64,000 nt of DNA from a virus (lineage: Duplodnaviria > Caudoviricetes): positions 64,001 to 128,000 of IMG/VR virus record IMGVR_UViG_3300031867_000003; one strand, 5' to 3'. Below are positions 19,140 through 64,000 of this stretch, piece by piece. The notes under the pieces are model-generated. The model did no database searches. It was not told the origin of the DNA and saw only the letters and a list, made by a program, of their open reading frames with translations. The position numbers and the translations under genes are program-made. Each line of letters begins with the position of its first letter. Position 1 is the stretch's first letter.

Positions 19140-19313
19140 TTATATGTCGTTATCTTGTTGTGACTTATCTTTATTTTGTTCTATTATGGGTAATTCCCAT
19201 ACCCTCATTTCTTGGAATTCAATTATTTTCTTTAAGTCCGGTATCTCCGGAGTCGATTTTGTCGCTCTTTGGATTTTGCCCCAGTTGAGTAGCGGTCTCC
19301 ATTTATCACCCAT
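19140..19313 (-). CDS. Small hypothetical protein
   Basis: GGTGA RBS; overlaps the end of the holin; last gene before the terminator. Confidence 0.45.
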   Translation of the reverse strand: MGDKWRPLLNWGKIQRATKSTPEIPDLKKIIEFQEMRVWELPIIEQNKDKSQQDNDI

Positions 19314-19746
19314 TGACTTCACCGGGTTCTGTAATTACCTGAGTAGAAGCAATAACTTCCTCAGTAGTTGCAGGTTTTTTGTTTTCTTCTACAATCTTTC
19401 TAAGGATTTTAAGCGATTCATCAATCTATGTATCAATCCATTTAATTATATCTTCCTATGATGCTGCTTTATTTAAAATTGGCCATTGCTCGTACACGCG
19501 TTGCACAACTTGTGCCCTCTTAATACTTCCGGCTTTATTCCAAGCTTCATAATCTACTTCTGCATCACTTATGAGTTTTAACATAACTTCTCTAATCTAC
19601 GTTTTAACAATCTCAATTTTTTCTTCATCTGTTTTACCTAAGAAATTTTTAATCTTCGCAATAATTCCAAGTATTAAACCGATACATACTGCAATTGTAG
19701 TCCAATTCGTATTAATAAATTCCAAAAAATTCTGTAATCCCTTCAT
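19306..19746 (-). CDS. Holin-like protein (LL-H type), 3 TAG=Gln
   Basis: MKGLQNFLEFINTNWTTIAVCIGLILG..., N-terminal TM, 'DAEVDY...GSIKRAQV'; GGAGG RBS; ends TGA. Confidence 0.65.
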
Positions 19747-19760
19747 AAATCATTTCCTCC

Positions 19761-20607: not shown

Positions 20608-22212
20608 TCAACTAACTCTAGCAATATACTACGCAGCTACAAAACCATAAATATGTGAATTAACACATATGTATAGCCAATCGGAGCCATCGAGGGCGGT
20701 GACTTTATCACAAACCTCGACCTCATATCCTTTTTCTAACTGAGGCCATGACACAATATTGGCATAAGAATACCCCGGACCCGACCTCACATTAAGATTA
20801 TTATCAATTGATTTGCCGACGTACTGAACCGTTTTGTTGACAGTGTATGTTCCGTCGGCTCGTTGTTTGTTGACTGTTGGAGTTGTTGCGGCTGAAATTA
20901 CAGGTTTAGCGGTAGTAGGTTTAGTAGTGTTGGTTTGTTTGGCGTCTTTTTTTTCTTTAATTAGCTAATCAATCTTTTTCATTGTTTTATTGCCGACGAT
21001 TCCGTCAACTTCAAGGCCATATTTTTTCTGGAACTCAATAACAGCATTATAAGTATGTTCGCCAAATTCACCGTCTTCATCAAGGTTGACATTCATCAGC
21101 TAATTAAGTTTTTTCTATAGATTTTTAACCGCACTGCCGACATCTCCGTACTGGATATCAGAAGAGGACGCCGACACTGTAGTTGTAGCAGTGCCGTTTC
21201 CTACATATCTAAGTACCACATTCCATGGATAATTCCGATAATCGCGGATTAAGATCTCTCGTCCGGTTTGATCGCCCGGTTGTCCGCCGGTTGCCTTCCC
21301 AAGTTCGTTTACACTGGCTTCGACCTCTTTGCCACTACCGCAATACATAGCGACGTGATGTACATGGTTAAGTAATATATCTCCGCGCTACATACCGTTC
21401 CCCGTATTGAGGTTAACAGTGCTAGTAACATCTTTGAAGCCATACTTCAAAAATACTTCATACATATTCCCCGTATACATGGCGCCACCTTTGGATTTAA
21501 CCGGAACGCCGGCTTGTTCCCATGCGGTAATCGTTAAACTGGAACAATCATAATCTCCGCGCTCATTCCAGCGGTATGCCTGATCGTAGCCGTGAGATGC
21601 ATCCCTAGCGACTTTCTCCATAAACGAGATTGCCGATTCAATAATCGCCACTACATTAGTAGTAGCAGCAGTAGTAGTAGTGGTTATCGGTTTTTCGGTT
21701 GAACTCGGTTTACTGATATAGCCAAACGCATCAGTATACCCATTGGCACCGTCGGGAAAACAAAAGAATGTCCATGACGAACCATAGACATTCTTTACCT
21801 TGGTAATATCTTTTTTATACATACTCCGATTTGTAGGAGTAAAAGGTACTCCATTATTGCTTGCGCTTGCGATATCGGATAAGCAATCATACTCATCCAC
21901 GTAGGACGGGAGACTACGATTGCCGTTGAGAATAACGTCCTTCACCGCATTAATTACAGATTGCGGAGCATAATTACCGTTGATATATGGTTTATTAAAC
22001 GATTCAGTCCCATACCAACCGGACTTCACCGTACAATCAAATGGGTTGCTATATTTTTTAGTCTGATACCGTTCGTAATAATTCAACATATGCGATGCAC
22101 ATGCCCGTACACCGGCATCATTGGAACCCTACTCTCGGTAGCAAATATTTGCCAAACCGCGAATTTGGGTTTCTGTAAGGTTATATGATTTTCCTTTATA
22201 TATTTCTGACAT
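20608..22212 (-). CDS. Modular endolysin (putative hydrolase + NlpC/P60 peptidase + PG-binding + SH3), 6 TAG=Gln
   Basis: 'CYRE*GS', 'GYDQ...DYDCSS', '[16 protein letters not shown]', 'VKNL*KKLN...DGEFG...[14 protein letters not shown]', 'LNVRSGPG'; single frame to TGA. Confidence 0.88.
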
Positions 22213-22229
22213 AAGTTTCACCTACCTTA

Positions 22230-25577: not shown

Positions 25578-26078
25578 TTATTCCCGCTCTCCAAGAATTG
25601 CATCAATCATATTAAGTGTGTCGAAGCCGATGCGTTCGTCAATAGTGTCAATATAATCATCAATGTTAACTCCGTTATATTCGTATGTGTTTTGTTCCTT
25701 AAGGATTTCATCAAGTCGAGCATTAAGATCAGAAATTGCCTTCTGATATTCCTCAAGGTACTCATCTTTAACCTGAAGACCGTCTTTCATAACTTCGTTA
25801 CCGTCATCATCCACAACCGGATTGCCGGCTTCGTCAAGTTCCGGTAGCATTGTCTTGTTGGCATGAGTTTCATCAAAGTATACGTCGCGGATTTTCTGGA
25901 GTTCCGCATCTCTGAACTCCTCATACGCCTTTGTATCGCCACTCATTTTTTCAATAGCGCGTTTCAGATTCCACTTAATTTTGAGCGGAAGTTTATCCAT
26001 AGTTTCTTTATTATTAACAAGTTGGTTATAAAATGCTACACAGTTAACAGCCTCAACAACATACAAATTTTTCTTCAT
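25578..26078 (-). CDS. Hypothetical tail-region protein
   Basis: AAGGAG RBS before MKKNLYVV; ORF track. Confidence 0.7.
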   Translation of the reverse strand: MKKNLYVVEAVNCVAFYNQLVNNKETMDKLPLKIKWNLKRAIEKMSGDTKAYEEFRDAELQKIRDVYFDETHANKTMLPELDEAGNPVVDDDGNEVMKDGLQVKDEYLEEYQKAISDLNARLDEILKEQNTYEYNGVNIDDYIDTIDERIGFDTLNMIDAILGERE

Positions 26079-26149
26079 AATTATAATTCTCCTTTTCTTC
26101 ATAAATTTACATTCACATAATAATTAATCAATCAATCATCACTCAATCA

Positions 26150-27007
26150 TCACTCAGTTGTTTCGTCTCCATAGACGATATTCATAAATTCATCAATAGC
26201 AGCACTGCCGTCACCACCACCTTGTCCCGGAGTAGTTCCGATGTGTGGAAGGTTTGCAATCGCCGCACTATACAGTTCGGTATATTTTTCACTAGTCGCG
26301 GAATCAAAATCCATAGCAAATGAATAGCCGGCAACTTCATCCTTGGTAGTAGCACCGTTAATCAGTTCCTTCACTAGGGTAAGCCGGATATTATTAGCGT
26401 TAACAAACTGTTGCATAGCAAGATATACCTTCATAAAATCATCAACCGAGTAGTTAACTCCGTCATACGGCACAGTAGTAATTTTTCCATCACTGGAGAT
26501 AATCACACTATATAAGTTCATAATAGCCATCTGAGAATCCGGACTCATCGAGAACAGTTTAGATCCGGTAGATAATTCCGCATGAACTCCGGTCGTGACA
26601 GTATCGAGATAGTCCGCTTCCGCACGTTTAAGGTAGTAATCCTTTACCTCGGCAAGCGTCATGGTTTCGGGATCGACTACCGGGTTCACGACTTGATCGA
26701 TTCGTTCAATAATCTCCATGAGGTTCGCCTTAGTCAGTGCAACACTCATAGTTTCGGCGAATTTGCCTTCGCCCTCTACATACATACGTCCCAGATACGA
26801 TATCTGAGAGAACCCGTCAAAACACGTAAATGAACCGACTACCGTACCGTCCATATAGATATCGAGGCGCTTAATGTCGGTAAACGCGGATTTCACTGCT
26901 TCAAAATCGGAGCTCTGAACATACAGCACCATATCATTTTTAAACATATTGGAATCCCAACGGGATAATCTGAACGTTGTATTATTAACTCTAGCAGTAA
27001 TAATCAT
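26150..27007 (-). CDS. Tail-associated protein (DUF4376-like, possible chaperone)
   Basis: 'GVHAELSTGSKLFSMSPDSQMAIMNL...DDFMKVY'; start MIITARV follows the upstream stop. Confidence 0.6.
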   Translation of the reverse strand: MIITARVNNTTFRLSRWDSNMFKNDMVLYVQSSDFEAVKSAFTDIKRLDIYMDGTVVGSFTCFDGFSQISYLGRMYVEGEGKFAETMSVALTKANLMEIIERIDQVVNPVVDPETMTLAEVKDYYLKRAEADYLDTVTTGVHAELSTGSKLFSMSPDSQMAIMNLYSVIISSDGKITTVPYDGVNYSVDDFMKVYLAMQQFVNANNIRLTLVKELINGATTKDEVAGYSFAMDFDSATSEKYTELYSAAIANLPHIGTTPGQGGGDGSAAIDEFMNIVYGDETTE

Positions 27008-27008
27008 A

Positions 27009-27695
27009 TTATTCCACCACCTTCCAGCCGGCTGGATATGCTGCCGGACTCCAAACATTGTTGTCGATTGTCGATTCGTAAACAACACCTTCAAAAGTTA
27101 CTTTGTCGCCGGTCATATACGGATTGCCGGCATCGGGCTGTGTCCACTCGGGAATTTCTTCAGTCGGTTCCGGAGTGGGTTCCGGTTCTGGTTCGGGATC
27201 GGGTGTAGGTTCTGGATCTGGAGTTGGTTCCGGAGTCGGCTCGTCGCCACCCTCATCCTCAACAACTTCAAAGTAGTTACCGACTAACGAAGCAGCAGCA
27301 GCATAGAGCGGTTGACCACTGTCTCTCAGACACAAATAAAGGATTCCGTCCTCAGTGTAATAAAGATCCTTGACCACCGTGAGATTTTCATTATACGGAA
27401 TCGGGTCATCAATAGCGCCGCTATGAATTTCGTCAATGCGCTCCCACAGAGAAGCAGTAGCGGTGGACGGTTCCCAACCGGTTTGGCTCGTGTGAGCCTG
27501 ACGGCACTTCCACAGTTCGACCTCTTCGCCGGGTTTATAGCTAACACGTTTGCCTACTTCGTAATCAGTATCTGGTTTCCACCGTTCAACAAATGTTGCA
27601 ACAGACAATGCTGTCTGATCATCAAGAGTTTCAGTTACATATTCGAGGAGCTTGCGAAGTTCCTTTGCTTTAGCTGTAATATTACTCATAGTCAT
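27009..27695 (-). CDS. Carbohydrate-binding (CBM5/12-like) protein with PEPTPD linker
   Basis: 'WKCRQAHTSQTGWEP', 'YMTGDKVTFEGVVYESTIDNNVWSP'. Confidence 0.75.
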   Translation of the reverse strand: MTMSNITAKAKELRKLLEYVTETLDDQTALSVATFVERWKPDTDYEVGKRVSYKPGEEVELWKCRQAHTSQTGWEPSTATASLWERIDEIHSGAIDDPIPYNENLTVVKDLYYTEDGILYLCLRDSGQPLYAAAASLVGNYFEVVEDEGGDEPTPEPTPDPEPTPDPEPEPEPTPEPTEEIPEWTQPDAGNPYMTGDKVTFEGVVYESTIDNNVWSPAAYPAGWKVVE

Positions 27696-27876
27696 CTTCC
27701 TCCTTTGTTTGGTCTAAATCTCCCATAATGGTATTAGTGAACATGTTTAATTCATCTGCCTGTTTTGCAACAAGCTATTTTAATTCTTCATTTTCAGCCC
27801 TTAGATTTAACATCATTACACGTTCCTTCGGCGACATTGTTCTGGGCTGATAAAAAATCTTTCCGTTGCTACTCAT
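27682..27876 (-). CDS. Small coiled-coil protein, 1 TAG=Gln
   Basis: MSSNGKIFYQPRTMSPKERV...EELK*LVAKQ; ends TAA. Confidence 0.5.
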
Positions 27877-28906
27877 AATATTTCATCCTTTCATCATACC
27901 AATGTTGTAACTTTGTTATTAGCTAATGATTATTTCCCTTGCTCATAAATGACAATCTCGCGGTTTTACTATCCTCTATACATTGTTTCGTCCGTTCGCC
28001 TTTGGCGTACATTTTCATTAGCTTTTTCAGAATATATTTAAACTCCCTAACCGATTGACTTCGCGGGAACTATAACACCTTGCCCGTGTCAGTCACTCTC
28101 CACTAAAATCCTATGAACTCAATTCCTTTGGCTAGAGTAGTAATATGTGTCTTGTCTTCATGAGGAGTTAAACATAATTTATCCAATTCTTTTGTGATCT
28201 CATCCAGACAATACTTTAAATATTCTTTATCCTCATGAATCAGAACCATGTCATCCATAACACGAATATAATCTTTGATATGAAGTTTCTCTTTAATAAA
28301 ATGATCGAGACCGTCAAGCAGACTTATACCGGCAATTTGTACCATTTGACTTCCCGGATTATATCCGGTATCACCTTCATACTATGCGTCGAGAATTTGC
28401 GCCACAATTTCATACGCATCCGGTTCTAATTTTTTACGAAACATTTCCTTTACAATATTATGCTTCATTGACGGATAATATTTCTTTATATCAATTTGCA
28501 AAATATACCCGTCGGTTCCATGGTTAATGTAAAAGCGTCGAAGTTGCTTGCGGAATAAATCCAAGCAATAATCTATTCCTTTACCTATTTGACATGCGCC
28601 ATTCTCTTTAATAAACGATTTTGACATTGTCGGATATAATATCTTGTCATTAAGTGTTCTCTGCCAGACTCTGTCTCGATATGATATTGCCAAGATATCT
28701 CTTGGTTTTGGTTTTGTTACCTAGAAAGAAACAGGAGCTTGAGACTTATATTCACCACTTTTCAGTTCATTGGAAAGCTATAGGATTTCTTCAAATCCGT
28801 GGAGTGAAAATCTCGCAACAGAGTCCTTCCATATGACTCCTTGTTGCGCTTTTAAATGACTTTCATATAAAGCCTCAAAACTCATGACTTCTTCGATTGC
28901 ATTCAT
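27794..28906 (-). CDS. DGR reverse transcriptase (370 aa in code 15; 7 TAG)
   Basis: AGGAGG RBS; 'KPRDI...YRDRVWQR', 'ACQIGKG', 'LQIDIKKYYPS', 'GYNPGSQMVQ', 'YIRVMDD', 'IEFIGF'. Confidence 0.93.
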
Positions 28907-29081
28907 AAATACAACCTCCTTTTTCTTGCTGTAATAGTGCGGCCGGTTCACCGACAACACATCAGCAAAATATTGTTTAGTATGGGAGTACCGCACCCAC
29001 ACAGGGTTATAAACTCCTTGCAACCGGGATTCTTCATTCTGCGACATATACGCATGTATTTTTATAAAATCCCGTCTCCAA

Positions 29082-29184
29082 TCGACAGCGAGGCGATTAG
29101 CGTTGTTCGGGTTATTGTTGTTCACATTACCAGACGAGTTCACATTACCCTCGTTATTGTTCCCGAGCCATGCCGAGCGAACCC
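29082..29184 (-). repeat. DGR template repeat (TR)
   Basis: 103-nt AAC/AAT-rich copy of the VR; all 17 differences from VR are at TR adenines. Confidence 0.97.
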
Positions 29185-29220
29185 GCCCCAGCACATTAAT
29201 AGCTTATAACCCAAATATAA

Positions 29221-29670
29221 TTATTTTAAGTTCTTGTACCTCTTGTAGTCATTGTCTTTCCATCGTTGTAACTGATTGCGCACCAGAACTGTTTGCTGCG
29301 TCCAATAAGTATACCGTTTTGGCGGTAGGTGAAAAATTGGTGCGCTCAGTTCTATAAGTGCAAGAAGTTCATTGCATTTTGAAGTACTTTTGTCTTGCAA
29401 ATTTCTTCTATGCCGATAATTATTCTTATTCAGAAACGTGGAGTTTGCAGAATATGCACTCATATATAAATCCAGTACCGTTTCGCGGATCTTTGCGACC
29501 AGTTCCGGCTGTGGTGGATTTTTCTTATCCTTTTCTGCGTCACCACAAGGTACAACCTTAAAATTATTGTTGTTCTATAAAATCGTCAGAGTATAAACGC
29601 ATAATTTTTTCGCGTTTATCAAACCTTCAAGTTGCGATTCGTTACGTTGTTCCTTAGGTACATTTGACAT
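29221..29670 (-). CDS. avd: DGR accessory variability determinant (Avd-like), 1 TAG
   Basis: 149-aa basic helical protein between VR and TR; 'MSNVPKEQRNES...ANS...RRNLQ...W...D.KRY'. Confidence 0.85.
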
Positions 29671-29701
29671 TGTTTTAGTCCTCCTTTTATTCCTAGAAAA
29701 A

Positions 29702-29723
29702 TAGGCACTCTTACGAGCGCCTA
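29702..29723 (-). other. DGR target-recognition hairpin downstream of VR
   Basis: TAGGCGCTC-GTAA-GAGTGCCTA just after the target stop codon. Confidence 0.75.
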
Positions 29724-29737
29724 TTAATGATTATTGA

Positions 29738-31237
29738 TTATATAATTGCGCAAGCGACAGCGAGGCGAATAGCGTAGTACGGGTAATTGCCGTTCACATA
29801 ACCAGACGAGTACACAAAACCCTCGAAAACGCTCCCGAGCCAAGCCGAGCGAACCCAATATGTTTGTGCAGAAGTAGTAGCATTTACCTAATATTTTTTT
29901 AACACCTCATATGTTCCGCTTGCCACGGTCTCTTCACTTTCAAGCAGTTCTTTATAATACTGGAACGGAGTCCCGTCCACCGTTGATATATTAGTAGCAT
30001 TCTTCAAATTCATTTCATGATGTGACGGCATCCAGAATTTATCATATGTATAATCAGTTCCACCGCCCATATAATTAGGCTCTTTTGTGGTAATCTTAAT
30101 CGGATGAATAGCGTTAACCAGATCACTGGATATATAGCTCTCAAATCCTAATTTATTATCATATCCGCTCGGCATTACATCACATTCGTGTTGTGCTTGC
30201 CACCATCCAGTTCCGGAATTATTTAGGTATTGCCTAGCACAACTATACTTCCAACTATTTGTTCCATAGCGAATAGCGTTAACCTAGTTCCATAATGTTA
30301 CAAACACCTTGTCATAATCTTCGTATGGAATAGTATCACCGACACTCAGATTAAGCGCGGTATATACGGTACCTTCTGCCGTATATCCATAGTAATAATG
30401 ACCGGCAGACGCTGTTTGCTCAGTAGCTTCAGTTTGTTCCGGCGCGTCAAATATCACTGTATCATGGTTTAAATATTCCATTATGAGAATTGGCACATTA
30501 TCGTAAGTTGTGCCGTCCTAAAGTTCCACTGTCTAAAAATCTGCCACAATCCACGGATTGGCATATTCAGTAGTACCAATTGTATACGTGTCGTTAATTA
30601 CGTCACCTACATTAAAATATTCATTTGCCCTACCGGTTTTTGCCACTTGTATCATCTTTTCCCAGGTGTCGGGAATAATATCCGCAACCGTTACCGGCTA
30701 AATAGCAGTCAGAACATACGGCTCTGTCCCGGTATATGTAAGAGTTACGTTTTGTGAACCCAGCGTTGACAGAATTGCAGGAGTAGCTGTATATTCGTTA
30801 TCCGATAAAATTCGTGTTTCACCGGTACTCCAAATCAGGGTTACTACCATACCGGTTTTATCAAATGTATTTCCGACTTCATATTCGGTTTGCGTTGGCG
30901 GAGTAGTCACAGTGATTGCGGTAGGGTAGGAGATATCCGGCAACTCAGCCACGCCATTATTTACCACGCTTACTCCACCAATTGTTACGTCCGAAATAGT
31001 TCCGTCCTATATAGCCTATATAGCATCACCCGTAGCCTTAGCATCGGCAGCTTGCCCGGTAGTACTCAGTGTAGCGTCAATATCTGGTGCTAAATTATTA
31101 ATTAACGTTTTAAGAACGGCACCGGTTACTTTCCGGCTGCCGCTCGTTGTTTCTATCATAAACACATCCGCATCATTAATTGTCGAGGCGGCTGTGAGAT
31201 TAGTTATCTTTTTTACTCCGTTTACCTTAATAGACAA
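29738..31237 (-). CDS. DGR target protein: Ig-like domain + C-terminal DUF6273/CLec-like domain (499 aa, several TAG)
   Basis: Single frame; 'ITVTTPPTQTEYEVGNTFDKTGMVV' (Big-like); ends 'YWVRSAW...RLAVACAII'. Confidence 0.9.
29754..29856 (-). repeat. DGR variable repeat (VR)
   Basis: Colinear with TR; encodes the last ~34 aa of the target. Confidence 0.97.
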
Positions 31238-49800: not shown

Positions 49801-50673
49801 AATTACGTACAAGTTATTGCCACCAATTCTAATACTGCCGATTGCCTTATCAACATCACTGAGTTTTGCATATGTAGAAGTAACTGTCTGTCGGAATGAA
49901 CTCGCGGTTTGCTCATTGGTAGTAACTGTATTTTTCAGAGTTTTGAATTCTTCGCCGTCTGCTTTGGTAGATAATTCAGATGATATATCGGAAACTGTCG
50001 AAGTAATCCCTGTAATATCCTATTCGGTTTGACTTACGCGACTTCTTATGTCGGCGCCGGTTGTACTGTCATATGCATTAATAGAAGAGCTAATATCGTC
50101 CTACCAGATTTTTTGCGTTATCTTTTTATTAATTTCGTCGGCAAGATTTATTAGTCCACTAATTGTAGAGCGGTGAACAGCGTCGGAATAAACCACGCTA
50201 CCGTCGCTCATCGTAAGTTCAACTCGCCCCCACAGATATTTATTCTCCGGGATTTCGTCAGGCTCCTCATATGACCATGAACCGCCGGTTACACTCGTTG
50301 AAGAGGTAGACACATACCATTGTTCCCGTTCGCGAGAAACAGTTGCGCCAGGGTCACCTTGGGTACCGTCCATACCCGATCTACTCACGTTATAAACAAT
50401 TGTAAATTGCCCATCGCTGTATATGGTGCGAGTTCTCGTCCACAACCATTCGCCCTCGGCAATAGTCGGTAATTCAGCGCTCCAACTACCCTGGGTGAGT
50501 ACCACGCCGTTTATGTCGGTAATAATATTGCCGTCTCCGTCCTTAAGCGGTGTTCCAGGTACAACCGTACCACTTGCGGATGTAGCATACTCAATTATTG
50601 AATCGACTACCGAATTCCCATCTTGTACATCAACCACAGACGTGGAACTCATTGCCAGTATTTTTGACATCAT
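43813..50673 (-). CDS. Very large tail fibre/host-specificity protein (~2286 aa in code 15)
   Basis: Eight ORF-track fragments share one frame; all but the last end at TAG; internal duplications. Confidence 0.8.
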
Positions 50674-50751: not shown

Positions 50752-53244
50752 TTACTCATCCTAAGATACTTCACAAATAAATTGCATACGTCCGTTAATC
50801 ATGGTGGGATCGACATACTAAACTCTCCCTGTCTTCCACGGAGCCGCAGTATCCACAGAATCGCCGGCGTTATTGATTCGATAGTATGAATAAATATATT
50901 CATCATTGTCTACGGAAGTAGCGTTATTCCATTGCGTTCCATTGTACTTTTTGAGTGTACACGTTTTGTTAGTACTATCAAGATGATAATAAAAATCTCC
51001 GGAACTTGCTCCCGTGGGAGCAGTAGCTGAAAACGTTGTCGATTTAATTGGATCTACCTCAACACCGTTTCTGTATACTCTGGTATAAATAGCCCCAAAT
51101 CCTTGAGAGTTTTTAAACTCGGCGATTGTAGCATATGTATACGAAACGAGAGGATCTGTCACGTCATTAATGGTATAATACGCACTATATGTTCCACTAT
51201 TATAAGTAGCTTCACATTTAAGCCACATTTGATCGGTAACCATAGCCGGAGTGATTTCAATAGAACTTGCGGTCTAACCATCAATAGCCTCATATTTTCC
51301 TCTGGTAAATTGCTTCCAAACAAAAGTAGAAGAACTTGTTACGTCCGTTGTGCCGGAATATACAATGGCAGTAATGGTAGTATTTTTACCTTCCTCAACA
51401 TTACCGCCGTCTGCGCTATATAACTGAAGAAGTACAGCACTGGTACCATTGGCGGCTTGTTTACTTTTTGTCCAGGTGTATTTATAATCTATGCTCTTAG
51501 ATTCTGCAGCTAATGTAATAGTAATGTCCCCGGTCATAGTCGAAGAAGACCCAAATGTTGCGCCATTTGCTACCGTTAACTTCAGCATACCGTCTGCCTA
51601 GGCAGTTCCGGCAGTATTGCTTTTAACGCTAACCCCGGTCGGAAGAGTACCTACAGTTGCCGTAACCGGAACTCTTGTAATACCCTTGTATGCAAAAAAT
51701 GGGATTGATATCTCACGAGCGGCAGCAGCGTTACCGGAAGTATTACACGGAATAACATCTGCATAATTACCTAGCCCCATGTTTATTGCGTCAACGCCCG
51801 GGGTTCCGTCTTCTCCCGAAATTCCATCCTTGGTAATTACAACAGATTGGCTGTCAAGTTCTTGGGTCGTACCACCGGCTGCGTATAAAGTACATTTAAT
51901 CATTACAACATTATTTGCAGGTGTATAATTCAGAGACTCGGTTGAAGACATATTTGTATTACTTGTCTTTCTTACTGTAAACTATGTACCGTCAGTAGAA
52001 TCACTAATGATAAATCTTCCGGAATAATTGGTTCTTGCGTTAGTCCCGATTTTTTCGTATGCTGTAAATACAACCGTTGTCGGCGTAAAATTGCCACTTT
52101 CATCTAAATTTAATGTATAAGCATTAGGGATTACTTCATAAACAACAGCGTCTTTGCCATTCACGCCCGCATATTGTTTCTGAATAGTATATCGTTTGGT
52201 AATCTAACTATATCCGGTTCTTGTACATGTAAATTCAGCATAAGAAACATCAGTTGTAAATTCTGTCGGCGTGTAGGTGTGCGTAGAATTGTCATATGTG
52301 CCGGTTAAACCGCTACCATCTACCTTTGTAATTGTCCACTAATTTGTTATGTCCGTGCCACCCTCGTAAATATGGATTTGAGTAGATGAATTATCAAGAT
52401 TGACTACACCTTGTGCATTAACAGGAGCCGTATGATTTTCATTTGTTAAAATTGCCGTAACAGTTGCATTACCGGGAGCTCCATCCCTAATTTTTATAAT
52501 CTGAGCAAAATCATAGACTGTGTCGTCATTAGTAGTTAATTTTACCACTACGGCTTTATCGTTATTAATCCATACGTTTGCCATATTCGGCGTAATTGTT
52601 AATACCCCTGTTTGTTGATTAACGGCACTTGTAGGAAACGCCACAAAATCACCGTCTGAATTTTTATATTGCCACTGTTGCAATGAACAATTGGTTAATT
52701 CCGGTGTAAGTTCAATGCTTTGTGCGCCGACGAGATCCCCATTCGTATTATATAAAAAGGCATTATTTTCTAATAATATACCGGCATATTTCAATTCAGA
52801 CGCCATTGTTACAAGCGTATATGTTAATGATGTTTCTGCCTCAATCGGGACACCGGTATTTGGGTCTGTATAAACAATCTTACAAATATAAGTAAGCTAT
52901 CCGCTTGCAACAGAACTAAGTTTATTTGCTTTTACATTAAGAACGCCACTCACAACAGTTTCTCCGGTTGTCAGTGCGGTAGGTGTCCCGGTCCCTTCTT
53001 TTCTTGTATATGTAATAACTAATCCGGTAGCATTAAGCGCAAGACTTGTCCCATTGTAGGAAATTACCGGGGTTATTTTTAAGTTATTAGATGACCAATC
53101 GGGAGAATATACGCCATTGCCGCTATTCTGATTAGGGTCATAAATAACACTATTTGGCAAATTACTGGTGCAATAGAAGTTAATTTGGCCAACGTCGGTT
53201 AAGTCTACAACACTTACGCTAGAAAATGCTTGTATTTTAGCCAT
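50752..53244 (-). CDS. Minor tail/baseplate structural protein (830 aa in code 15)
   Basis: MAKIQAFSSVSVVDLTD; six in-frame fragments; 'LTNENHT', 'DG..G.DA' motifs. Confidence 0.8.
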
Positions 53245-53263
53245 ATTTCAATTTCCCTCCTTT

Positions 53264-56200
53264 TTAATCCGATTCAACGGTAATGTTTTCGTATTCAAAC
53301 TTACACTAAAAATCGGCGTTCTTTCTTACATCATTTGCCGTAATTGTGATAACTTTTGCCCCTATGCTGTGACGAGCATTCCAATAGGTATCTTCGTCCT
53401 AATCACGGCTTGTTCGTGTCCAAATGAAACATGACGCGTCATATTCATCAGTGACATCAACATTATTTCTTAATAATTTTACATTCAGCTGAATGTTTCC
53501 ACCCCATATGTTCGTCCCATACGGGGTTTCAATATATAAATCATAATTAGCCTTATTTTCTAAATCATAACGCAATGTGTCCAAGGCAGTAGTAGTGCCG
53601 TTTTTGAACTCTGTATATTCAACGCCAAAGCTTCCACCTCCGGTAGTAATCTGTTCTATGGACACTGTATCTCCCTATTTCATGATATTAAAACTGAGCT
53701 TATCTTCTGAAATAGTTCCGTCATGAATCATGTTATTTACAATCAAACCATCCGCGACTGCATCCGCCGTGATACCACTCGGCTCAATAATTGTCGCCCC
53801 ACTTTCATTTCTAAGTACTAAACTCGGCTGACCGTTTGTGGCATAGCCAAGCTATACACCGACATAATCATTGCCCTGTGAATCCGTGCCGAGAATTTGG
53901 AGTGCCTACCCGTTCATAATCATTTTACCATTCTCAGACAGTATCCGCATTTGGTCGCTGACAGTAATATCCCCAGCCGCAAGATCGCTGACTGTAATTT
54001 TTCCAGCCACAGCATCATAAATATAAGCGTCTGTAATTGTACTGGTTGCCGCGGTAGAAGAGAGTGCCTGCAAACTTTTAATAAAAGCATTGCCGACATA
54101 TTCACTTTCTATATTTGCGACATCAATTGTGGCAAGTTTTGCTTTAAGATCTTCGACTCTAATTTCAGACGCAACAACCAATGTACTCTGAAGATATTCA
54201 ATAAATGCGGTATCGGCGGTAAGGCGCTCAACGTCCGCTTCCGTTGCAGATAATAATGCAGTAATTACCGCGTTAGCACTGACAGTACCGGCCTAGATAT
54301 ATGGTGCAATCAACTCAGCGAATTCCGCATAGTCACCTTTAATTTGACTGACATCAATGTCGGAAGCACTAATCTTTCTGGCTACTACCTAATCTATCGT
54401 CGCCGAGCCGGCCTCTAATATGTTGGTAGACAACTGGTCGAAATCAGCACTCTATGCCTGAAGCAATTTGGTGACAATCATATCGCTTTCAAGGTACTTC
54501 GTAATTACTTCATCAAATTTACCGGTTTGAGCGTTAAGTAGAACAGTAGTAATGGAATCGGCACTCAACCTACCGGAAAATAATTCATCAAACTATGCCT
54601 ATGTTCCGGTTATATGATCGACCTATATGTTAGTATTGCCCATATAGGTAGAAATTAAATTATTAACCTCAGCAGTATTTGTTCCGCCGACAACAGACAT
54701 TGCCTGACTTCTTACCGCATTGGTAAATAAGCCGGATTTTGTCATCCAGGTAAGTAAGGTTGTCGCATATTCTTCATCGCTTTTAGAAGCTCCGGTTCCT
54801 AACGAAATACTGTTTTTTTGGCCTCTGTTATTCTCATCATCAATTATCTGAGTAAAATCATTACGCCCGCTACGGGATGTTATCATAGATGAGAATACCA
54901 GCGTAAGATTTTCATCTACTTCGCACGGATTATATTCGATTTCAATGATTCTTAATTTTACACTAAAATCATCGCGGATTCCCAAACGAATAAATCTCAT
55001 TAGCCGTAAATCTTCCGTCCAGTCAGCGAACTCGGGAATGCGCAGTAAATTATCCAAACTCACACTGAACTGATATTGTGGACGAGCAACTTCCGACAAC
55101 TTGTCCACAGCATCTTTGTATAACTCATAACTACGATCCACTAAGGCATCGGCATTATCGAGAGAAGTAGATAATATATTAGAGTTGGTGTAATCCGTGT
55201 CAATAAATAATGTTCTGATATAATTCTTTTCGTCCTCGGTGAAATCCTCACATGTATCCAGATTATTAGCAATATTGGCATCTCTGATGTAGCCTTCAAC
55301 TTCGGCGAGTGCGTCTTGAAGATTTTTTATTCTGTCCTCGAGAAGGGTTTTTCTTTCTTTCATTTGTTTAATCATTTTTTGGATATGAACATAATCATTT
55401 CGACCCTAAATATTATAAGCTTCTTCTGTAACATAATTAAGCTTTTCTTGCTTGGTCATCTGAGTTTTCCAATCCTTGGAGAAATGATTAAGCGCCGGTA
55501 ATTTATCCTCTTCGTAGTTTTTAAGCTTGCCATCAAGTTCATATAAACCATACAGCTCCCAGTTCTCTTCGCTTTCTGTGCCAAATCGGATTTTCTGATC
55601 ACTCGGCACATTTATATTGATCATTGCCTATTTAATGTATGGAATTACATATGTAACAAGTTCAATGTAGGCATAAAGTCCTCCGGTGTTTGTAGTATCT
55701 AGTTTATTTAAGTACCAATCATGATCTACTTCCTCAGAACCGTCCTTTTTCTTAGGAATATAATTATGATTTTTATCATATTTTTCCGAATCCTCTCGGT
55801 CGTCTACCGAAGATTGGATGGCAGCCAACTATGCTTCACTTAAAACAAGATTTTCTTTCAGTCCTTCATAACTCATGTTATCCCATTGCTTCCAATAGGT
55901 ATTATCACTCGGAACATGATACTACAACTCATCAATTTGCCGGTTGAGTTCCGCTGCTCGTTTTTCATCTCTAACAAACTATTCCCTGTACGTGTCACGG
56001 CGATGTATCCACTAATTTATTTTATCAACTAATTCTTGTTCCATATATGGTTCGCCGAGGAAGTACGACAAATCAAAACATTGCTCCTCACCATAATTGG
56101 CGTTAGTAATCATTAGATCATTGTCACCGCGAACTCTGAATCTTGTAAATACACTGTCTTCATTAACAGTAATATCAACATTGTTCGCCAGATTTCGGTA

Positions 56201-56890
56201 GCCAATAAATATGTTGGTGTCGAAATCAAGATTCTCTTTTCCGTACGCGTTAACTGTTCGATTAAGATAATCAAAAATAAATATCAATCCTAGTCTGGGG
56301 GCGACAGTATTGGTCATTATTGAATATATATTTGCATTATCAACTTCAATAATTGGAATTTGCATTTTATATAAGCCATAATCAATATGTCCAATGCTCC
56401 AGTATGGGAGTTTTGTCAACATCAGATGAACAAAAGATAACTCCGGATTGTCCGGATTATAAAATGTAACAAAATTTTTAGCCACGCCAAGTTCATTTAT
56501 ATTGTCGGTAGCTAACATTTCGAGGCTGTCTTCTTTACCGCAATTAATCTTTAGTCCAACCCAATCCTTTTGTTCAAACTCTTTTTCCAGCGAATAAGCC
56601 TGGATTTCTTTATATTCGTAATTGCCGTCATTATGGACCGTCGGTTCCTATATTTGGAAAAATCCAATCCCTTCGAGGAGTAAATACATATAAACCTTGA
56701 GGTCTTCATATCCATTAGACTCGACCAATTCGCCGTCTATGGACAAATAACGGTCTACACTAAATGTCAGTTCATCATAATCTTTTACATACTGATGAAG
56801 AGTTACAGAATCTGTTTGCAAACCGTTCAATACGGTTCTGATTTTTAAATCGGGAGTACACAAGTATATTTTTTTGACATCCTAAATCAT
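53264..56890 (-). CDS. Tail tip/Tal-like protein (1208 aa in code 15; third codon is TAG)
   Basis: ATGA coupled to the Dit stop; ATG ATT TAG GAT; seven in-frame fragments; 'LSEVARPQYQFSV', 'IIEIEYNP'. Confidence 0.8.
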
Positions 56891-57738
56891 ACCAACCATC
56901 CCCCGGCAATTTTAACAGGAGAGTCATACTCTAATTTTATTGTAATATCTCCATGTACGCCAATTAAATTTCTGCCCGGTTTAAGCCTAAACCAATAAAT
57001 ATTATCAACATCTTCCCATCCCAGTTCCCTAAAATGGAGAGTTCCTGACTAATCTGAAGCAATACAATGATGACAATCAAAATAATATTTAACATGGCGA
57101 GAGGTCGTCACACTCATGGTATTCCCTCTATCGGTAACATTAGTTAACTTAAATGACGGATTGCTATTTAAATCTGCACAATATATCTCAAATTTTGGAT
57201 ACACCCATTCTTCCAATTCATCAGAAGCACAATCAACAGTGAAGCTCCAGTTTGGTAGTCCATCTGTGTCATCAACCGCACTATTCGGGGGTGGTGATAA
57301 ATTCATTATATGATGTTCATATGCATACGAACCATTAACCGAAAATGTAAAATCCATAGCATAAAAACCGTCATCAATCGGATACCACTGAGTCGTGGTA
57401 AATTTTCCATAGTATTTATATCGAACCACGCCATTACAATCTGTAATCTGAATAGGCAATGAAAATTTCGGTGAGGTCAACCACCGTTCTACGGCGATTT
57501 GCTCGGCGTATGTAAACATGGTTGTATCGGATTTAATAAGAGAATATGTGAATTCTAAATGTTCAGCTATTGTGCCGTACTCATTAACAAATGGGCGGCT
57601 AATAGTCGGTTCGCCACCCATAAGAGTACGCGTTACTCCCTGGACACTGCTTACGGCGCCGTCGGTGGAGCAGAGCAGTAGTTCTACATTTGGCAGAATA
57701 TTAGATGTTGACTTCCCATTATAAATAAAACCGGCCAT
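56887..57738 (-). CDS. Distal tail protein (Dit-like), 1 TAG
   Basis: Directly after the tape measure; 'MAGFIYNGKS...RWLTSP...WFRLKPGRN'. Confidence 0.8.
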
Positions 57739-57806: not shown

Positions 57807-60800
57807 TCAGTGTCCGGCTTTTCTCATATCTTTAGCTATTTCTTTGGTAGTATAGTTATAAATGTTCTTTTTAAATGATGCATTGCTCATTAATCCCTTG
57901 GCAATTTCTTCTAACTGTGGCACTATGGACTGATCCGCGTTGCCGTCAATTCGAATAAGATTGTCATAGTGGATGGTGATGTTCTGATTTGTGCTATGAT
58001 TAATATTATATTCCGGTGTCTGGAAGTTAGGTGTCTAGACAGGCACCATTCCAGATTTAGCCATAGCCATAAGGTTCTCCGTAAGGTCTGCCGGGATAAC
58101 TCCGTCTCCGGCTTTTAACGGCATTAACATTACACCACGACGGGTGATAATAGCTTCCGGACCCTTTTCGTTGATTTGATAAAGCCCCGGCTTCGCGGAT
58201 TTCGTTCCTTTCGCAAGACCGCCACTAAGATATTCTTCTCCTAGTTTACCGCCACTGAAATCACCGTTTATGAGTAATTGTCTAAACATGTCATTAAGAT
58301 CGCCGACCTGCTCGCTGATTTTTGTCGCCTCGGATTTCATAGCTTGCCAATAGTCGTATTCTTTTTGAGAAAGATTATCTTTATAAATGTCTAATTTCTT
58401 GCGTATATTACTGCTACTAAGATTAACTCCTTCAACATATTTATACTATACATCGAGATCTTCTCCGACCATCTATGGAACACCCATATTTTGTTCGCCC
58501 TAGAAGGCATCGGGGTGGAACGACTTAAGATAAGCATTAAAAGAAGCATTTACGTTACCAAGTGAAGCTTTAAGGTTAGTGGCAGAATCAACTACAAGTT
58601 GTGCCGCATGGTCAATATTTATAGATAAGTCTTTTACAAACTTCTCATAATTTTCTTGAAGTTTTGCTGAAAGATCGGTTAATCCGTCAATACGGAGATT
58701 TACTATATGATCTTTGACAGTGTCATCAAGTTCTTCTTGCATTTCCGCACGTTGTGCTTCAAGGCGAGCCTTTTGAGCACGGCTCTCGGCATCAGTTCAT
58801 TTATATTCACATGGTTCGCTACACCATGCCGTGTGAGATATAACCAATGGTATATCCACACTGCTCATGCTTTCACATGAGATTAGACTATATCATCTAT
58901 GGAAATTTTCCATAGTCTGTTGTTTCGAATTGCCAGCTTGCAATCCTACGTCCCTACACTCATCGGGACTAGTCGTTGAACGTTTCCTAGTATGTCTAGA
59001 ACTTCGCTGCTGATTGCCCAATATTTATCATTTTTAAACTATCGTAATTATTTATTATCACTGTAGTGATAAATCTCTAAGGGTTTCCCAGCAATTAAAC
59101 AGAATGCCCAATATAATTAGGCCATTTAGTGCGCGGATTTGCTGTTCGATAAGCTGCACATCTTTATTTTGCTTGCGTAGTTTCTTATCGTAATCGTACA
59201 TCTCTTTCTTTTTATTTATCTCATTTTTCCGGGCTTCAATAAGTTTGTTAATATAAGTAATTTCTGTTTGATACCTATCGGTTACATCCTTAATAATCAC
59301 CTGTCTCTGAGACGCGAGAGAAGTAATTACATCGCGAGATTGCGCTTCATATTCTTTCATTTTGGAGTTATATGTTTCTATATCAAGAGACGGATCTTCT
59401 CTTAACCGATTAGTAAGCACTTGTTGAGCTGTTCGAATTTTTGTAAACTAATCTTGTAGCATTTTATAGCTACGAACATCCATTGCGTATTTTGCAGTAC
59501 CAAGTTCAGTAAAGGTGCCGTCGGTCGTATACATCATTTCCGGAGAAATTGTTCCTTTGAGCTAATCTAAGGCTTTATGTACGGTGTCAATATTTTTAAT
59601 CATATCTTCCAAAGGTTTGAAATATACATCTTGCCTCATATCATCATATAAATTATTGATTTCTTCATCTAATTTATATACTTCTATATTAGCCTTTTGT
59701 ATATTTGCCATCATTGCTTTGTGCGCTTCGGAGTTCTCCAGAATTGTTCCGGCTTTAACATAGCTATCTAATAACTCCTGCTGGGCTTTCGCCTAATTTG
59801 CATATGCTTTTTGAGCGTCTTTTAATCGGTCGATTTGTCCTTCATAGTTGCTCTTCAAAAAGTCAATCGAAGAGTTCTTCTTGATAGTTGCTTTTCCGGA
59901 TTGATCATAAGAATAGCTAATTCCGTCAGTCAGTAATGTCGTGCGAGGTATATTGGTATTTCTGACGTATTCTCCGTCTTCATTCTTAGTAGCAATATAA
60001 TATCCTTTATCTACCGAATAAACAACTCTTGATTCACCGACTTTTTTTCCATTGGTCTTGAATGTCGGCTATGTGCTATTAAGTTGGTCGGGAGCAATAT
60101 AATATCCGCGTTCTTTCCATACTTTACGTATTTCTTCGCGGCGATCCGCCCAGGTTTTGGATAAATTAACGGCCGCTTGATACCAAGACTCGATATTATC
60201 CATCTTTTCCTATGCGATCTTTTGCTCGCGCTCTGCAACTTCAACCGCAGACTAAATGAGTTCTTCCCTCATTTTTTGCTCTTGTTCTCTGGCTTGACCG
60301 AGAGCGCCGGTAACATTTTCCAATGATGCCGTAGCATTATTCCATAACGCAACCGCCTCCCCAAGTTCGTTAGACACTCTTGTCGGATCTATTTTCCAAC
60401 CGTTATTTAAAGCTTTATTAATAAAATCTTTTTCTGATTTGGAAGCCTTTTTATACGCGTCATTGCTCAATATAGATTTCTTTGCTTTGTCGGATTCTTT
60501 TTTTAGCGAAGCCTATTGAGATGCAAACTGGGTTGTTATTTCCTATTGTTCCTCTATAGCGATCCGGCGCTTTTTCAATTCCTCTTTCAGCTAACGCATT
60601 TCCTTATCAATGTTTTCATTTTGCGCTATATAACTCGGCTTATTAAGAGAGCTTTCCATAAGTACATTAGCCTATCCATAAGAAGTGTCTTGTAAATTTT
60701 TCAATTCGTTTTTGTCGGCTCGGTTCTATTTTCTAGCGGCCTAATACGCTTTATCCGCACTATTCTTGGCGGTTTTGGCAGCTGCTTCTTTTTTGATTTT

Positions 60801-63800
60801 ATTATTGTAATCATCGACAAGCTTTTTGAAATAAGGCCCCCTATTTTTATTATATGGAATAAGTTCACCTTTTTTCATTGCGTTTAGTATTGAATTTTTA
60901 TCATTCTTCGAAACTTTTTTATTTGCTTTAAGATAATTTTCTAATTCAGTTTTGGATTTCTATGTTAAATCTTTGCGGCTTTCATATTTACTTTTGGCGT
61001 CATTATAATTCTATAACTTAGTGGCTCTGTCAGCTGTAGACTTAGCTACCACATCTTTCTATGCTTTTACCCCCGTGGCAAATTCTATCCAGCGCTGCGC
61101 AGACGCAATGCCGGATTTTCCGCCGGAAATTGCACTTGTTATTCCGGAAATAGTATTGATTCGGTTCTCAATTTTATCAAGCGCCTTCTCTAGCTTTTCG
61201 GTCGGTAGCTAGATAATCTGGCTCTGAAGATCTCTCATTGTATTCGCAAGTTCTTGTATCGCATTATTTGCGTCGCGAGATTTATTAATATAATCGAGAT
61301 ATGCGCGAGCGCCTTCAACAAAAGCGGCCTAATTAGGATTGGTCGTCTCTATTTGTTCAAGATTATATTTGCCTTCAAGTAAATCTTTTTGATTAAATTT
61401 GCTCCAGATATTTACTGTCTGTTTGTTTCCGTCTTTGTCCGTATAAACATAGGCTTTTGCTAATTCTTCGGCGAAATTTTTGTATGTCGTCGCGGCGCGA
61501 GAGTTGGCTTTAATTTCATTCTGGAGTGCGGTAACTTCGCTGCGAAGAAGTTTCCCCTTAGTTGCGTTGGTCACATAATCGGTAATCTTGTCGGCAATTT
61601 TCTTCGTTGCGTCAGCAAAATACTGAAGACGAAGTTCAACGTAATCGAATATTTCTTGGGAGAATTGAGGTTTATCGGCATTGTCATTGTTATTATTTCC
61701 GGCATTGTTGTTACCGCCACCACCGGTACTTGCTTGCTAATTGCCACTACCGACATTTACGTTGTTATTATTGCCGGTAACAGTTACTCCGGATTGCCCA
61801 CCACCGCCACCGGTCCATGTAAATGTTCCGCCGCCATTACCGGCATGAGCATTCATTCCATTAACTGTCCCTTTCGCAAATGCGGATGAGCCGCCAATTA
61901 TACGTGCGTGGCTAGATGTACGACCTTGTTTAAGAAGATCTTCCGTTTGTTTGTGATTAAATCATATATGTTTTTCTCAGTTCGCTACGCTGAGAAGGAA
62001 TTATTATAATTCCCTCATAGTTTCCTATGAGATCAGACTATATCATCTACTCAAATAGAAGAGTAGTTTACCGTTTCAAGGGTCAATAGCTTACCCCCTA
62101 CATGATAGTCGTTGAACCTTATTCTATTCGAATCTTGGCTGCTGATTACCAAATAATAATATTTTAAAAACTTTCACGATTATCTATATTTCATAATTTC
62201 GTTGTAGTTATTATTCTCTAATGGTTTTCCAGCAATTAGATAAATTTTTCAATGTATGTTGCCATACAAAGTCGCATAATTAATACGACGTCGCCCCTCT
62301 TAAGGTTTTCTATATGTGGTCCACCAGGAACGAGGAACCATTTGCCGTTTCTTATGATTGATTCCGTTCCCAATTCATTAATCAAGCTTTCTTGGTCTTT
62401 GTCTATTGCGATGTCACCTTTTGCATATCCACTCATATCTTTGTAGTTAAGCATATTATATGCGCTACCGGATTTTGCTACCTTGCCTTCTTCGTCAAAC
62501 GTGCCTTTTGCATAACCTCGCCCTATTGATGAGAGAGTACCAGAATATGAAGCAGCATTTTCTGCTTTACCAGGTTTATTAACTTTGCCAGGTTTATGCG
62601 AAGCACTAGAACTTGCACTCTAACTTGGCTTCACAACAGTACCAGTAACAGTAGCACTAACATGGGCACTAATACTAATGTTGGCAATCATAGCACGAAT
62701 TCTACTTACTGCACTTTGCGCAGCGCTTATTGCCCTATCTGCATTACCGTCAATTGTGATTCTGGCGGTTCTTCCATTCGCAGACGCAACCGCTTGATTA
62801 ATCGCACTAATTGCGCCAGAATTATTGCCATTAATGGTAATTCTACCGGAACTTGAGTTAGCATGAGAAACCGCAGTAGCTATTGAACTCATTGCCTAAG
62901 AGTTGTCTCCACCAATTGTAATTTTGGGGTTTGCATCTTCAACAGTGGAGACCACTTCTTCCACAGAAGAAATAGCCTACTCATTATTAGCCTAAATATT
63001 TATAGGTTCAGAGGCAGATGATTTGATATTATCAACCGCAGTTTGGATTGCCTAAACCTGTGAAAGAGCGCCGGAAGTTGTTATGTTTAATGCTATATTC
63101 TGGGCAGCAGCTTTAACTCTGTTAATTAACCCAGATAATGCACTAATCTAACCGGCTGCCTAACTGGTATTTGCAGTAGTTGTAACTGTTTCTGTTTTTG
63201 TTTGCGTCTAATCTTTATTTCCGCCAAATAAACCCGAAATAGCATTTTTTGCTTTTTGAATTACTTCAACTATAGTAACTTTTTTTGTCGCTGGTTTTTC
63301 CGCCTATGCTTGAATTTCATCCTAGCCGGTAGCTTCAAGTTTAACTTCCTTTGTGTACTCCTCGCCATTAATCGCAGCACTAACAGCTTCATTAATCCCC
63401 TAGAGAGAACCCTCGTCTAATTTGACGGGCATAGATATTTCTTTTCCGTCAATAGAATTAATCATTGCTTCGGCGGTTTCCACATCAGATGTATCTATGT
63501 CCAAAGTGGCGGAAAGAGTTCCATCATTCATCGATTGCTATAATTCTTCTAATGAACCGCCATCTTCAAGATACTGTTCTATTGCAACTCGCACGTTATA
63601 CTCCTGTTGGGTCTTTGCTTCAAGCTATTCAAGCTATGCAAGTGCTTCTTGTCCGCCTTCTTCTTCGACATTGATTTGCGCTTTCATTTCGGATATTTCA
63701 GCTAATTTATTCTAAAGTTCATCAACACTCATCGAAGCGGCATCGAATTGAGTAGCCCCCTCGAATTGAGTACCTTTAAATAATGCTTCAACCTTGTCGG

Positions 63801-64000
63801 TAGCAACAGTAGTACTATCACTGAATTGATTCATACTATTGATAGGTCCAGCAAAATCAATTACTCCAAGCGCCGCAAGAATCGGTACTAGCTGTTCAGC
63901 TTGGGCAGAAGATAAGCCAGCTGCTTGTGCAATACCCTCAAGGGCATCCTCAGCAGCTTCGAGTCCCTTAACATTATAGTCTCCATCTCCCAACTTAATC
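57807..64000 (-). CDS. Tape measure protein, 3' part (exons >64000-62285, 61962-59119, 58797-57807; many TAG)
   Basis: Long Ala/Lys-rich helical protein upstream of Dit; 'AKGT...INEKGPE', 'INELGTE...LKRGDVVFNHKQT'; frame continuous after removing two introns. Confidence 0.88.
58798..59118 (-). ncRNA. Group I intron A (321 nt, no endonuclease ORF) in the tape-measure gene
   Basis: P AATTGCTGGGAA, Q AATCAGCAGC, R GTTCAACGACTA, S ATGATATAGTCT; P1 GCCU/GGGC with U.G wobble; terminal G; spliced exons read NGL|TDAESRAQKARL. Confidence 0.92.
61963..62284 (-). ncRNA. Group I intron B (322 nt, no endonuclease ORF) in the tape-measure gene
   Basis: Near-identical P/Q/R/S elements; P1 GUCGU/GCGAC; terminal G; spliced exons read RGDVV|FNHKQTEDLL. 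Confidence 0.92.

Follow-up and report, generated by a model that had tools for sequence, protein, structure and literature searches.

Is the stop codon TAG read as glutamine in the late genes of this phage and, if so, which tRNA reads it? The question arises from a 64,000-nucleotide (nt) stretch of viral DNA (the window), which comprises bases 64001-128000 of the 202,175-bp IMG/VR virus contig IMGVR_UViG_3300031867_000003; the phage is called G000 below. An earlier note on this window had proposed that TAG is reassigned to glutamine in the late genes. Our analysis bears out that proposal, as the gain in open reading frame is specific to TAG and homologues contain glutamine at the TAG sites. 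We consider it very probable that G000 uses two coding regimes, in which late TAG codons are read as glutamine by a phage-encoded tRNA(CUA) that competes with release factor 1 (RF1) of the host. Positions given below are those of the window unless they are marked as genome coordinates.

CheckV estimated that the G000 genome is 100% complete. Plus-strand genes occupy ~0-83 kb of the genome, followed by a minus-strand block from 83.3 to ~188 kb. The recoded late block extends past the window to ~172 kb in genome coordinates, and the terminase, portal and head genes lie in the part outside the window. Bases 1-127 of the genome are repeated at 201498; we judged that this repeat is not a terminal overlap. 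The window itself consists of two blocks.

1-19300, plus strand: early block, read the same way in both codes (Pfam matches)
19306-64000, minus strand: late block containing structural, lysis and diversity-generating retroelement (DGR) genes, with TAG as glutamine (PHROG and Pfam matches to tail, tape-measure, virion and endolysin families)

TAG behaves as a sense codon in the late genes

When the minus strand at 19306-64000 was translated in the standard code (code 11), it appeared as a mosaic of short open reading frames (ORFs), whereas treating TAG as a sense codon resulted in a tight array of long genes. The number of residues in open frames of at least 300 amino acids increased from 3278 to 12555 (of 14898). 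The corresponding numbers with TGA or TAA as the sense codon were 3302 and 3367, i.e. no gain over the baseline. Joined genes include ones of 2286 residues with 22 TAGs, 1211 residues with 19 TAGs and 1104 residues with 7 TAGs. The earlier note had suggested that coding density be compared between codes 11 and 15; the greedy coding density of the whole genome rose from 0.781 to 0.914 with TAG as sense.

The late genes of the window contain 144 in-frame TAG codons among 13,802 codons, with at least one in 21 of 24 genes or exons. Among codons of the glutamine type TAG accounts for 28% (144 TAG, 116 CAG and 253 CAA). Late genes, unlike early genes, have fewer CAG than CAA codons (272 CAG and 522 CAA, versus 289 CAG and 230 CAA in early genes), which fits a derivation of the late TAGs mostly from CAG. 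The in-frame TAG rate was 1.7 per 1000 codons in the early block, mostly artefacts of ORF extension, and 11.2 per 1000 in the late block. As the off-frame density of TAG was nearly equal (16.5 early and 16.4 late per 1000), we conclude that the difference between the two blocks is caused by the reading frame rather than by base composition.

The integrase and the attP-like site described below suggest a temperate lifestyle, and one could imagine that G000 is a decaying prophage whose genes are dead and have acquired TAG as nonsense mutations. This explanation is scarcely credible. Apart from two introns, the in-frame stops are all TAG (144); neither TAA, TGA nor frameshifts occur over 13.8 kcodons. 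Moreover, relatives with direct terminal repeats show the same TAG pattern, and the TAG sites are conserved glutamine sites.

Glutamine is conserved at TAG sites

The terminase gene, which lies outside the window (genome 167125-168885) and contains 11 TAGs, was used as the test gene. Its sequence was compared at the codon level with 23 homologues without any TAG, including YonF of SPbeta. Because these homologues contain no TAG, the assignment of TAG to glutamine is independent of the code used by any gene caller. Terminase matches of 75-90% identity in protein databases were rejected as independent evidence, as they are possibly code-15 translations themselves. At two TAG sites all 23 homologues contained CAA or CAG, and glutamine was the majority residue at 7 of the 11 TAG sites of G000. 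When the TAG columns of eight recoded terminases were pooled, glutamine constituted 54.5% of the aligned residues compared to a background of 4.3%, and it was the majority residue at 20 of 35 columns. The mean BLOSUM62 score at the terminase TAG columns was 2.03 for glutamine, 0.84 for glutamate and 0.10 for serine, while tyrosine and leucine were not among the eight best-scoring residues.

Comparable results were obtained with the DGR reverse transcriptase (RT). Residue 271, encoded by TAG, is glutamine in 88 of 89 homologues of <56% identity. The remaining TAGs of the RT gene occupy variable polar sites, as do many of its CAA and CAG codons.

Internal repeats provided additional information. 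In the duplication within the 2286-residue protein, TAG is paired with CAG or CAA in three of six cases. One copy has CAG at 47068-47070 and TAG at 47023-47025, whereas the other has TAG at 45766-45768 and CAA at 45721-45723. The earlier note had relied on this pair and on a second repeat, and every coordinate that it quoted proved to be exact. In the second repeat, 'IPTKTSQLQNDS' with CAA and CAG at 39762-39770 corresponds to 'IPTKVS*L*NDS' with two TAGs at 39672-39680. The coordinates and the pairing of TAG with CAA/CAG stand; however, this repeat alone is not proof of glutamine because a third copy reads 'SDLTNDS'.

A group I intron splits the gene for tRNA(CUA)

No tRNA gene was found in the window, in agreement with the earlier note, which had seen no suppressor tRNA there and had suggested a search of the remaining genome. 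That search located a tRNA(CUA) gene 36.7 kb past the end of the window, within the late block and on the same strand as the late genes. The gene was identified with ARAGORN when introns were allowed; all coordinates in the following list are genome coordinates.

164685-165002, minus strand: tRNA(CUA) with a long variable arm, outside the window
165002-164970, minus strand: exon 1
164969-164739, minus strand: intron
164738-164685, minus strand: exon 2

The 231-nt group I intron separates anticodon positions 35 and 36 (ARAGORN output tRNA(cta) i(34,231)). The spliced tRNA folds as a cloverleaf with the anticodon loop CUCUAAA. CUCU of the exon is able to pair with an intronic GGAG, and ...GTAAG forms the 3' end of the intron.

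Orthologues of this tRNA were found in four recoded relatives. The genes of G001 and G003 are split at the same site as that of G000, and their introns are homologous (59-74% identity). The genes of G002 and G004 are uninterrupted and encode tRNAs (92-96 nt) in which the variable arm is long. Compensatory changes occur in all four stems of the five tRNAs, while the loop CUCUAAA is invariant. As the stems covary and the anticodon loop does not change, we argue that the mature tRNA(CUA) is functional. The existence of intron-less orthologues suggests that the intron is a tolerated mobile element rather than an obligatory timer.

Neither intron-free ARAGORN nor the Rfam tRNA model detected a CUA tRNA in the whole genome; intron-free ARAGORN reported only tRNA-Met, Gly, Gln(UUG) and Pro. 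Similarly, blastn with the G002 and G004 suppressor tRNAs and a brute-force scan for CUA stem-loops gave no match in the unspliced DNA of G000. The earlier note had also proposed a search for a release factor and glutaminyl-tRNA synthetase (GlnRS); RF-1, PCRF and tRNA-synt_1c (class Ic, GlnRS-type) domains were absent from a domain search of the whole genome.

One could propose that no dedicated tRNA is involved, i.e. that a near-cognate tRNA-Gln reads TAG after RF1 has been disabled and that the tRNA(CUA) gene is dead. G000 does encode a tRNA-Gln(UUG), the intron of its tRNA(CUA) scores below the Rfam threshold, and published TAG-recoded phage genomes yield a suppressor tRNA in only 40% of cases (bioRxiv 10.1101/2021.08.26.457843). 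Nevertheless, this explanation is highly improbable. The complete tRNA(CUA) cloverleaf, together with stem covariation and the invariant loop in five genomes, indicates selection on the mature tRNA. In addition, genes with 55-57 TAGs are beyond the reach of low-efficiency readthrough, and no anti-RF1 function was identified.

Other candidates were rejected. Three tRNA-like sequences (genome 12087-12168, 12891-12981 and 14050-14141) contain no CTA and lack the fold of a decoder. These sequences score 31-36 bits with the Rfam tRNA model, which is a passing score, and they contain insertions of 17-25 nt or 'anticodon' loops of 4 nt. Similar aberrant tRNA-like copies are present in G001 and G003, and the copies share acceptor stems resembling CGGAACG/CGTTCCG. 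An identity as tRNA-Pyl, the label that ARAGORN assigns to any CUA tRNA, does not fit the body of tRNA(CUA), although no search was aimed at pyl genes. The body of a Pyl-type tRNA has a very short variable loop, whereas the variable arm of tRNA(CUA) is ~20 nt, and conservation points to glutamine.

Two insertions were observed in the relative G002. The homologue of tRNA-Gln(UUG) (G002:42028-42167) has an insertion of ~70 nt in its anticodon loop; a typical group I intron would be longer. The G002 match to the terminase gene (4166-6136) is ~220 nt longer, and both TAA and TGA occur in frame within it, which suggests an intron or other insertion.

Charging of tRNA(CUA) and the probable host

The tRNA(CUA) of G000 has G73 and an A1/C72 mismatch, i.e. 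a weak 1:72 pair. In all five suppressor tRNAs the variable region is ~20 nt and forms a hairpin. Each of the five variable arms contains a U(C/U)UGA motif that resembles a glutamine anticodon loop (~164700-164720 in the G000 genome), although the stems of the arms differ. In G001-G003 the arm could display CUCUGAA, which differs by one base from the true loop CUCUAAA.

GlnRS of the host would charge this tRNA with glutamine if it behaves as GlnRS is established to do toward CUA anticodons. Escherichia coli amber suppressors charged by GlnRS include the tRNA-Gln CUA of supE and the tRNA-Trp CUA of su+7. The G000 tRNA resembles them in its CUA anticodon with U35, in G73 and in the weak 1:72 pair, and differs in having a long variable arm and C-G at 3:70. 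A more elaborate possibility is a two-headed tRNA, in which the UCUGA-type arm recruits GlnRS, the CUA anticodon reads TAG and splicing sets the moment of the code switch; we regard this as unlikely.

A short sequence beside the integrase gene provides information on the host.

18887-18932, plus strand: attP-like core of 46 nt, matching the 5' half of a bacterial tRNA-Pro(GGG) gene exactly (weak Rfam tRNA match)

The 46-nt sequence occurs unchanged in at least 120 genomes, of which nearly all are Lachnospiraceae. On the basis of this identity, the tRNA-Pro half is likely the attP site and a clue to the host. Five of five genomes that carry the match contain both GlnRS (>700 bits) and RF1 (>530 bits), and therefore such a host would terminate at TAG and could glutaminylate directly. 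An 856-residue, TAG-free polymerase-like protein of G000 has few relatives, some of them in Enterocloster phages.

Early genes lack TAG with the exception of TnpB

According to the earlier note, the early plus-strand genes, except for TnpB, neither contain TAG nor end with it. Our results agree with this claim: all 28 plus-strand ORFs of at least 60 residues at 1-19300 stop at TAA or TGA, as do 96 of 100 early plus-strand ORFs in the whole genome. In-frame TAGs at 1-19300 were confined to TnpB, three N-terminal over-extensions and one doubtful ORF of 96 residues. Pfam matches in the early block include a PcfJ-like protein, NAD-dependent DNA ligase, RRXRR-HNH, a formate/nitrite-transporter-like protein, NrdD, dUTPase and integrase. 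The genes relevant to the early/late split are as follows.

10487-11737, plus strand: TnpB (OrfB_IS605 and Cas12f1-like TNB domain), 416 residues (Pfam 1.8e-29)
17544-18746, plus strand: tyrosine integrase, TAG-free (Pfam PF00589)
35005-36003, minus strand: second tyrosine recombinase, TAG-free, within the recoded block among tail-fibre genes (phrog_1 5.9e-47, PF00589 5.2e-38)
25578-27094, minus strand: two TAG-free late-block genes, one of 174 residues without an assigned function and one of 314 residues with a weak tail-fibre match

TnpB is the sole clearly recoded gene of the early block, with in-frame TAGs at codons 95 and 174. The protein aligned over its full length, on both sides of each TAG, to 119 homologues. 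The two TAG columns are variable (K/E/Q and E/H/A/Q). As TnpB is intact only with both TAGs as sense codons, this nuclease of the transposon type would be translated only under the late code of the phage. No TnpA-like gene turned up beside TnpB, although no search was aimed at TnpA.

The recombinase at 35005-36003 is one of three TAG-free genes in the late block. Its lack of TAG agrees with the published avoidance of recoded stops by integrases (bioRxiv 10.1101/2021.08.26.457843). A shufflon or invertase arrangement around this gene is not supported, as no meaningful inverted repeats flank it.

A model for the code switch

We propose the following model. The TAG-free early genes and both recombinases would be read correctly by host ribosomes in an RF1-containing cell with the standard code. 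Since the anticodon of tRNA(CUA) is split by the group I intron, a working anticodon would exist only after splicing. GlnRS of the host would then charge the tRNA with glutamine, and the charged tRNA would compete with host RF1. Late proteins would be made only once tRNA(CUA) had accumulated. The order of these events in time, GlnRS as the charging enzyme, competition with RF1 and the identity of the host are inferred.

Several points weigh against this model. The assignment of glutamine to TAG comes from conservation, and splicing is predicted from the sequence. A few TAG sites align with E/D/N, R/C or K, although some CAA/CAG sites do likewise. TnpB carries TAGs even though it lies in the 'early' block, and because of this the early/late split is not absolute. 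The IMG/VR class of the contig is linear despite the CheckV estimate of 100%. With the Rfam group I intron model RF00028, which has a gathering threshold of 50 bits, the tRNA intron of G000 scores 29.7 bits (E 1.7e-5) and is thus below the threshold; the orthologous intron of G003 scores 50.5 bits and is above it. Finally, a long variable arm is typical of bacterial tRNA-Ser, tRNA-Leu and tRNA-Tyr, not tRNA-Gln. Because of this class-II-like arm, charging of the suppressor with glutamine is not certain.

The last point suggests that TAG could specify serine, leucine or tyrosine, with the placement at glutamine sites resulting merely from a single CAG to TAG transition. SerRS recognizes the long arm rather than the anticodon, the ~20-nt hairpin is present in all five suppressor tRNAs, and the depletion of CAG from late genes indicates that the TAGs do come from CAG. 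Despite these arguments we consider this alternative improbable. TAG was retained at positions where glutamine is conserved in 23 of 23 terminase homologues and, for the RT, in 88 of 89, and these same TAGs recur in several recoded relatives. Serine accounts for only 3.5% of the residues in the pooled TAG columns, tyrosine and leucine are not among the eight commonest, and the mean BLOSUM62 score of serine (0.10) is far from that of glutamine (2.03). Furthermore, CUA anticodons are good substrates of GlnRS, as in su+7 and supE, and the likely hosts have this enzyme. Reading of late TAG as glutamine by tRNA(CUA) thus remains our preferred explanation.

Two group I introns interrupt the tape-measure gene

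At two places the joined late frames are interrupted by stops other than TAG. Both places correspond to matches to RF00028 above its gathering threshold, and the surrounding frames are parts of a tape-measure gene.

62285-64000, minus strand: upstream tape-measure exon, 15 TAGs within the window, continuing past the window end
61963-62284, minus strand: group I intron of ~322 nt (RF00028, 84.5 bits at 62014-62294)
59119-61962, minus strand: middle tape-measure exon, 18 TAGs
58798-59118, minus strand: group I intron of ~321 nt (RF00028, 74.8 bits at 58864-59128)
57807-58797, minus strand: last tape-measure exon, 4 TAGs, stop codon TGA (phrog_8892 tape measure)

The 5' splice sites were placed from the P1 U.G pairs, after U at 62285 and after U at 59119. 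The 3' splice sites, taken as the first in-frame G, would be ...ATATATG| for the intron at 61963-62284 and ...ATAAATG| for that at 58798-59118. The ends of the Rfam model were rejected as 3' splice sites, as they result in stops in the downstream frame. Both introns are ORF-less, extend ~50 nt past the end of the Rfam model, like the intron of tRNA(CUA), and contain a similar GTAGCGAA hairpin in the tail. Removal of both introns made the reading continuous across both junctions. As intron excision joins their frames, we conclude that the ORFs of 2284, 932 and 311 residues are exons of one tape-measure gene.

This result modifies the earlier note in one respect. The note had stated that the joined genes end in TAA or TGA; this does not hold for the stops at 62236 and 59058, which lie inside the group I introns and are not gene ends. 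TAA or TGA within the joined frames, which it had named as contrary to recoding, does occur in form at these two places; in each case a group I intron, not a broken gene, accounts for it.

Other genes of the late block

Additional recoded genes of the window encode tail, lysis and DGR proteins.

20608-22221, minus strand: endolysin (NlpC/P60, endolysin-like domain and PG_binding_1), 6 TAGs
27794-28906, minus strand: DGR RT, ~370 residues from Met97 of a 466-residue open frame, 7 TAGs (phrog_1423 2.4e-74)
29079-29184, minus strand: DGR template repeat (TR), a 106-nt direct repeat 84% identical to the variable repeat (VR)
29221-29670, minus strand: DGR accessory protein Avd, 1 TAG (phrog_3206)
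29738-31258, minus strand: DGR target gene (Big_3 and DUF6273), 7 TAGs, with a C-terminal VR at 29751-29856
38308-40305, minus strand: repeat protein of 665 residues, 9 TAGs, with IPTK(T/V)S-x-L-x-NDS repeats
43813-50673, minus strand: fibre-like protein of 2286 residues, 22 TAGs, with an internal duplication
50752-56899, minus strand: two tail proteins, one of 830 residues with 8 TAGs and one of 1211 residues with 19 TAGs (phrog_3267 and phrog_6211)

The start of the RT was chosen because its homologues begin at query residues 90-100. The DGR at 27794-31258 is complete, as it contains RT, Avd and a TR/VR pair that differ only at adenines of TR; all 17 mismatches of the 106-nt pair are at such positions. 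The RT of this DGR could itself be made only after the code switch.

Relationship to known systems

In code-15 gut phages TAG specifies glutamine, structural and lysis genes carry most of the recoding, and neither early/replication genes nor integrases have in-frame TAG (bioRxiv 10.1101/2021.08.26.457843). The earlier note had pointed out that late-gene-concentrated recoding was already described, and our findings match that description. The recoding itself belongs to this known and published strategy of reading late TAG as glutamine. The published phages usually encode no synthetase along with the suppressor tRNA, when the latter is detectable (bioRxiv 10.1101/2021.08.26.457843). G000 differs from the code-15 phages of Borges et al. 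in its suppressor tRNA, whose gene contains a group I intron and whose variable arm is long, and in lacking an RF2 gene. A large Firmicutes-type clade, 'Sapphire', appears to have a genome size of 201 +/- 22 kb (bioRxiv 10.1101/2021.08.26.457843); the agreement of G000 with it comprises only genome size, recoding of TAG and a host of the Bacillota type. This clade in particular, together with the crAss-like and Lak phages, offers the nearest parallels to the recoding in G000.

An affiliation with crAss-like phages, guessed from size and code, was rejected, as the best terminase and portal matches are to SPbeta and other Bacillota phages. The terminase is 44% identical to YonF over 94% of its length. 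The portal is homologous to the YonE type of SPbeta, and its best matches are in large Bacillus phages (26-27% identity). G000 also resembles SPbeta in having a large genome of the temperate type with an integrase. The 856-residue TAG-free protein resembles proteins of Enterocloster phages annotated as 'RNA-dependent RNA polymerase', an enzyme of the YonO type. In contrast to G000, SPbeta has the standard code, and there is no TAG in its terminase gene. In addition, G000 is larger, has a DGR and TnpB, carries several group I introns within its virion genes and probably grows on Lachnospiraceae. Taken together, G000 is probably an SPbeta-like, temperate phage of Lachnospiraceae with a genome of 202 kb.

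Group I introns are known in the anticodon loops of cyanobacterial and plastid tRNA-Leu(UAA) and of Azoarcus tRNA-Ile (PMC13168695). Like these bacterial tRNA introns, that of G000 is small and ORF-less, is inserted in the anticodon and has a 5' U.G pair and a terminal G. It differs from them in that the tRNA that contains it is a phage amber suppressor and in having an extra 3' hairpin beyond the end of the Rfam model. The tRNA-Leu intron is inserted at 34/35, compared to 35/36 in G000. Our literature search found no paper on a recoded phage whose suppressor tRNA is split by an intron.

Implications

G000 is a clean phage example of TAG read as glutamine, demonstrated from the DNA itself in a lineage other than the well-studied crAss-like and Lak phages. 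Annotation of G000 in code 11 fragments about two-thirds of its late proteins, and the combination of recoding, virion-gene introns, a recoded DGR and a recoded TnpB places many layers between the genome sequence and the proteins. Standard tRNA finders report no suppressor in G000, and intron-split suppressor genes such as this one account for part of the gap left by the 40% detection rate in TAG-recoded phages.

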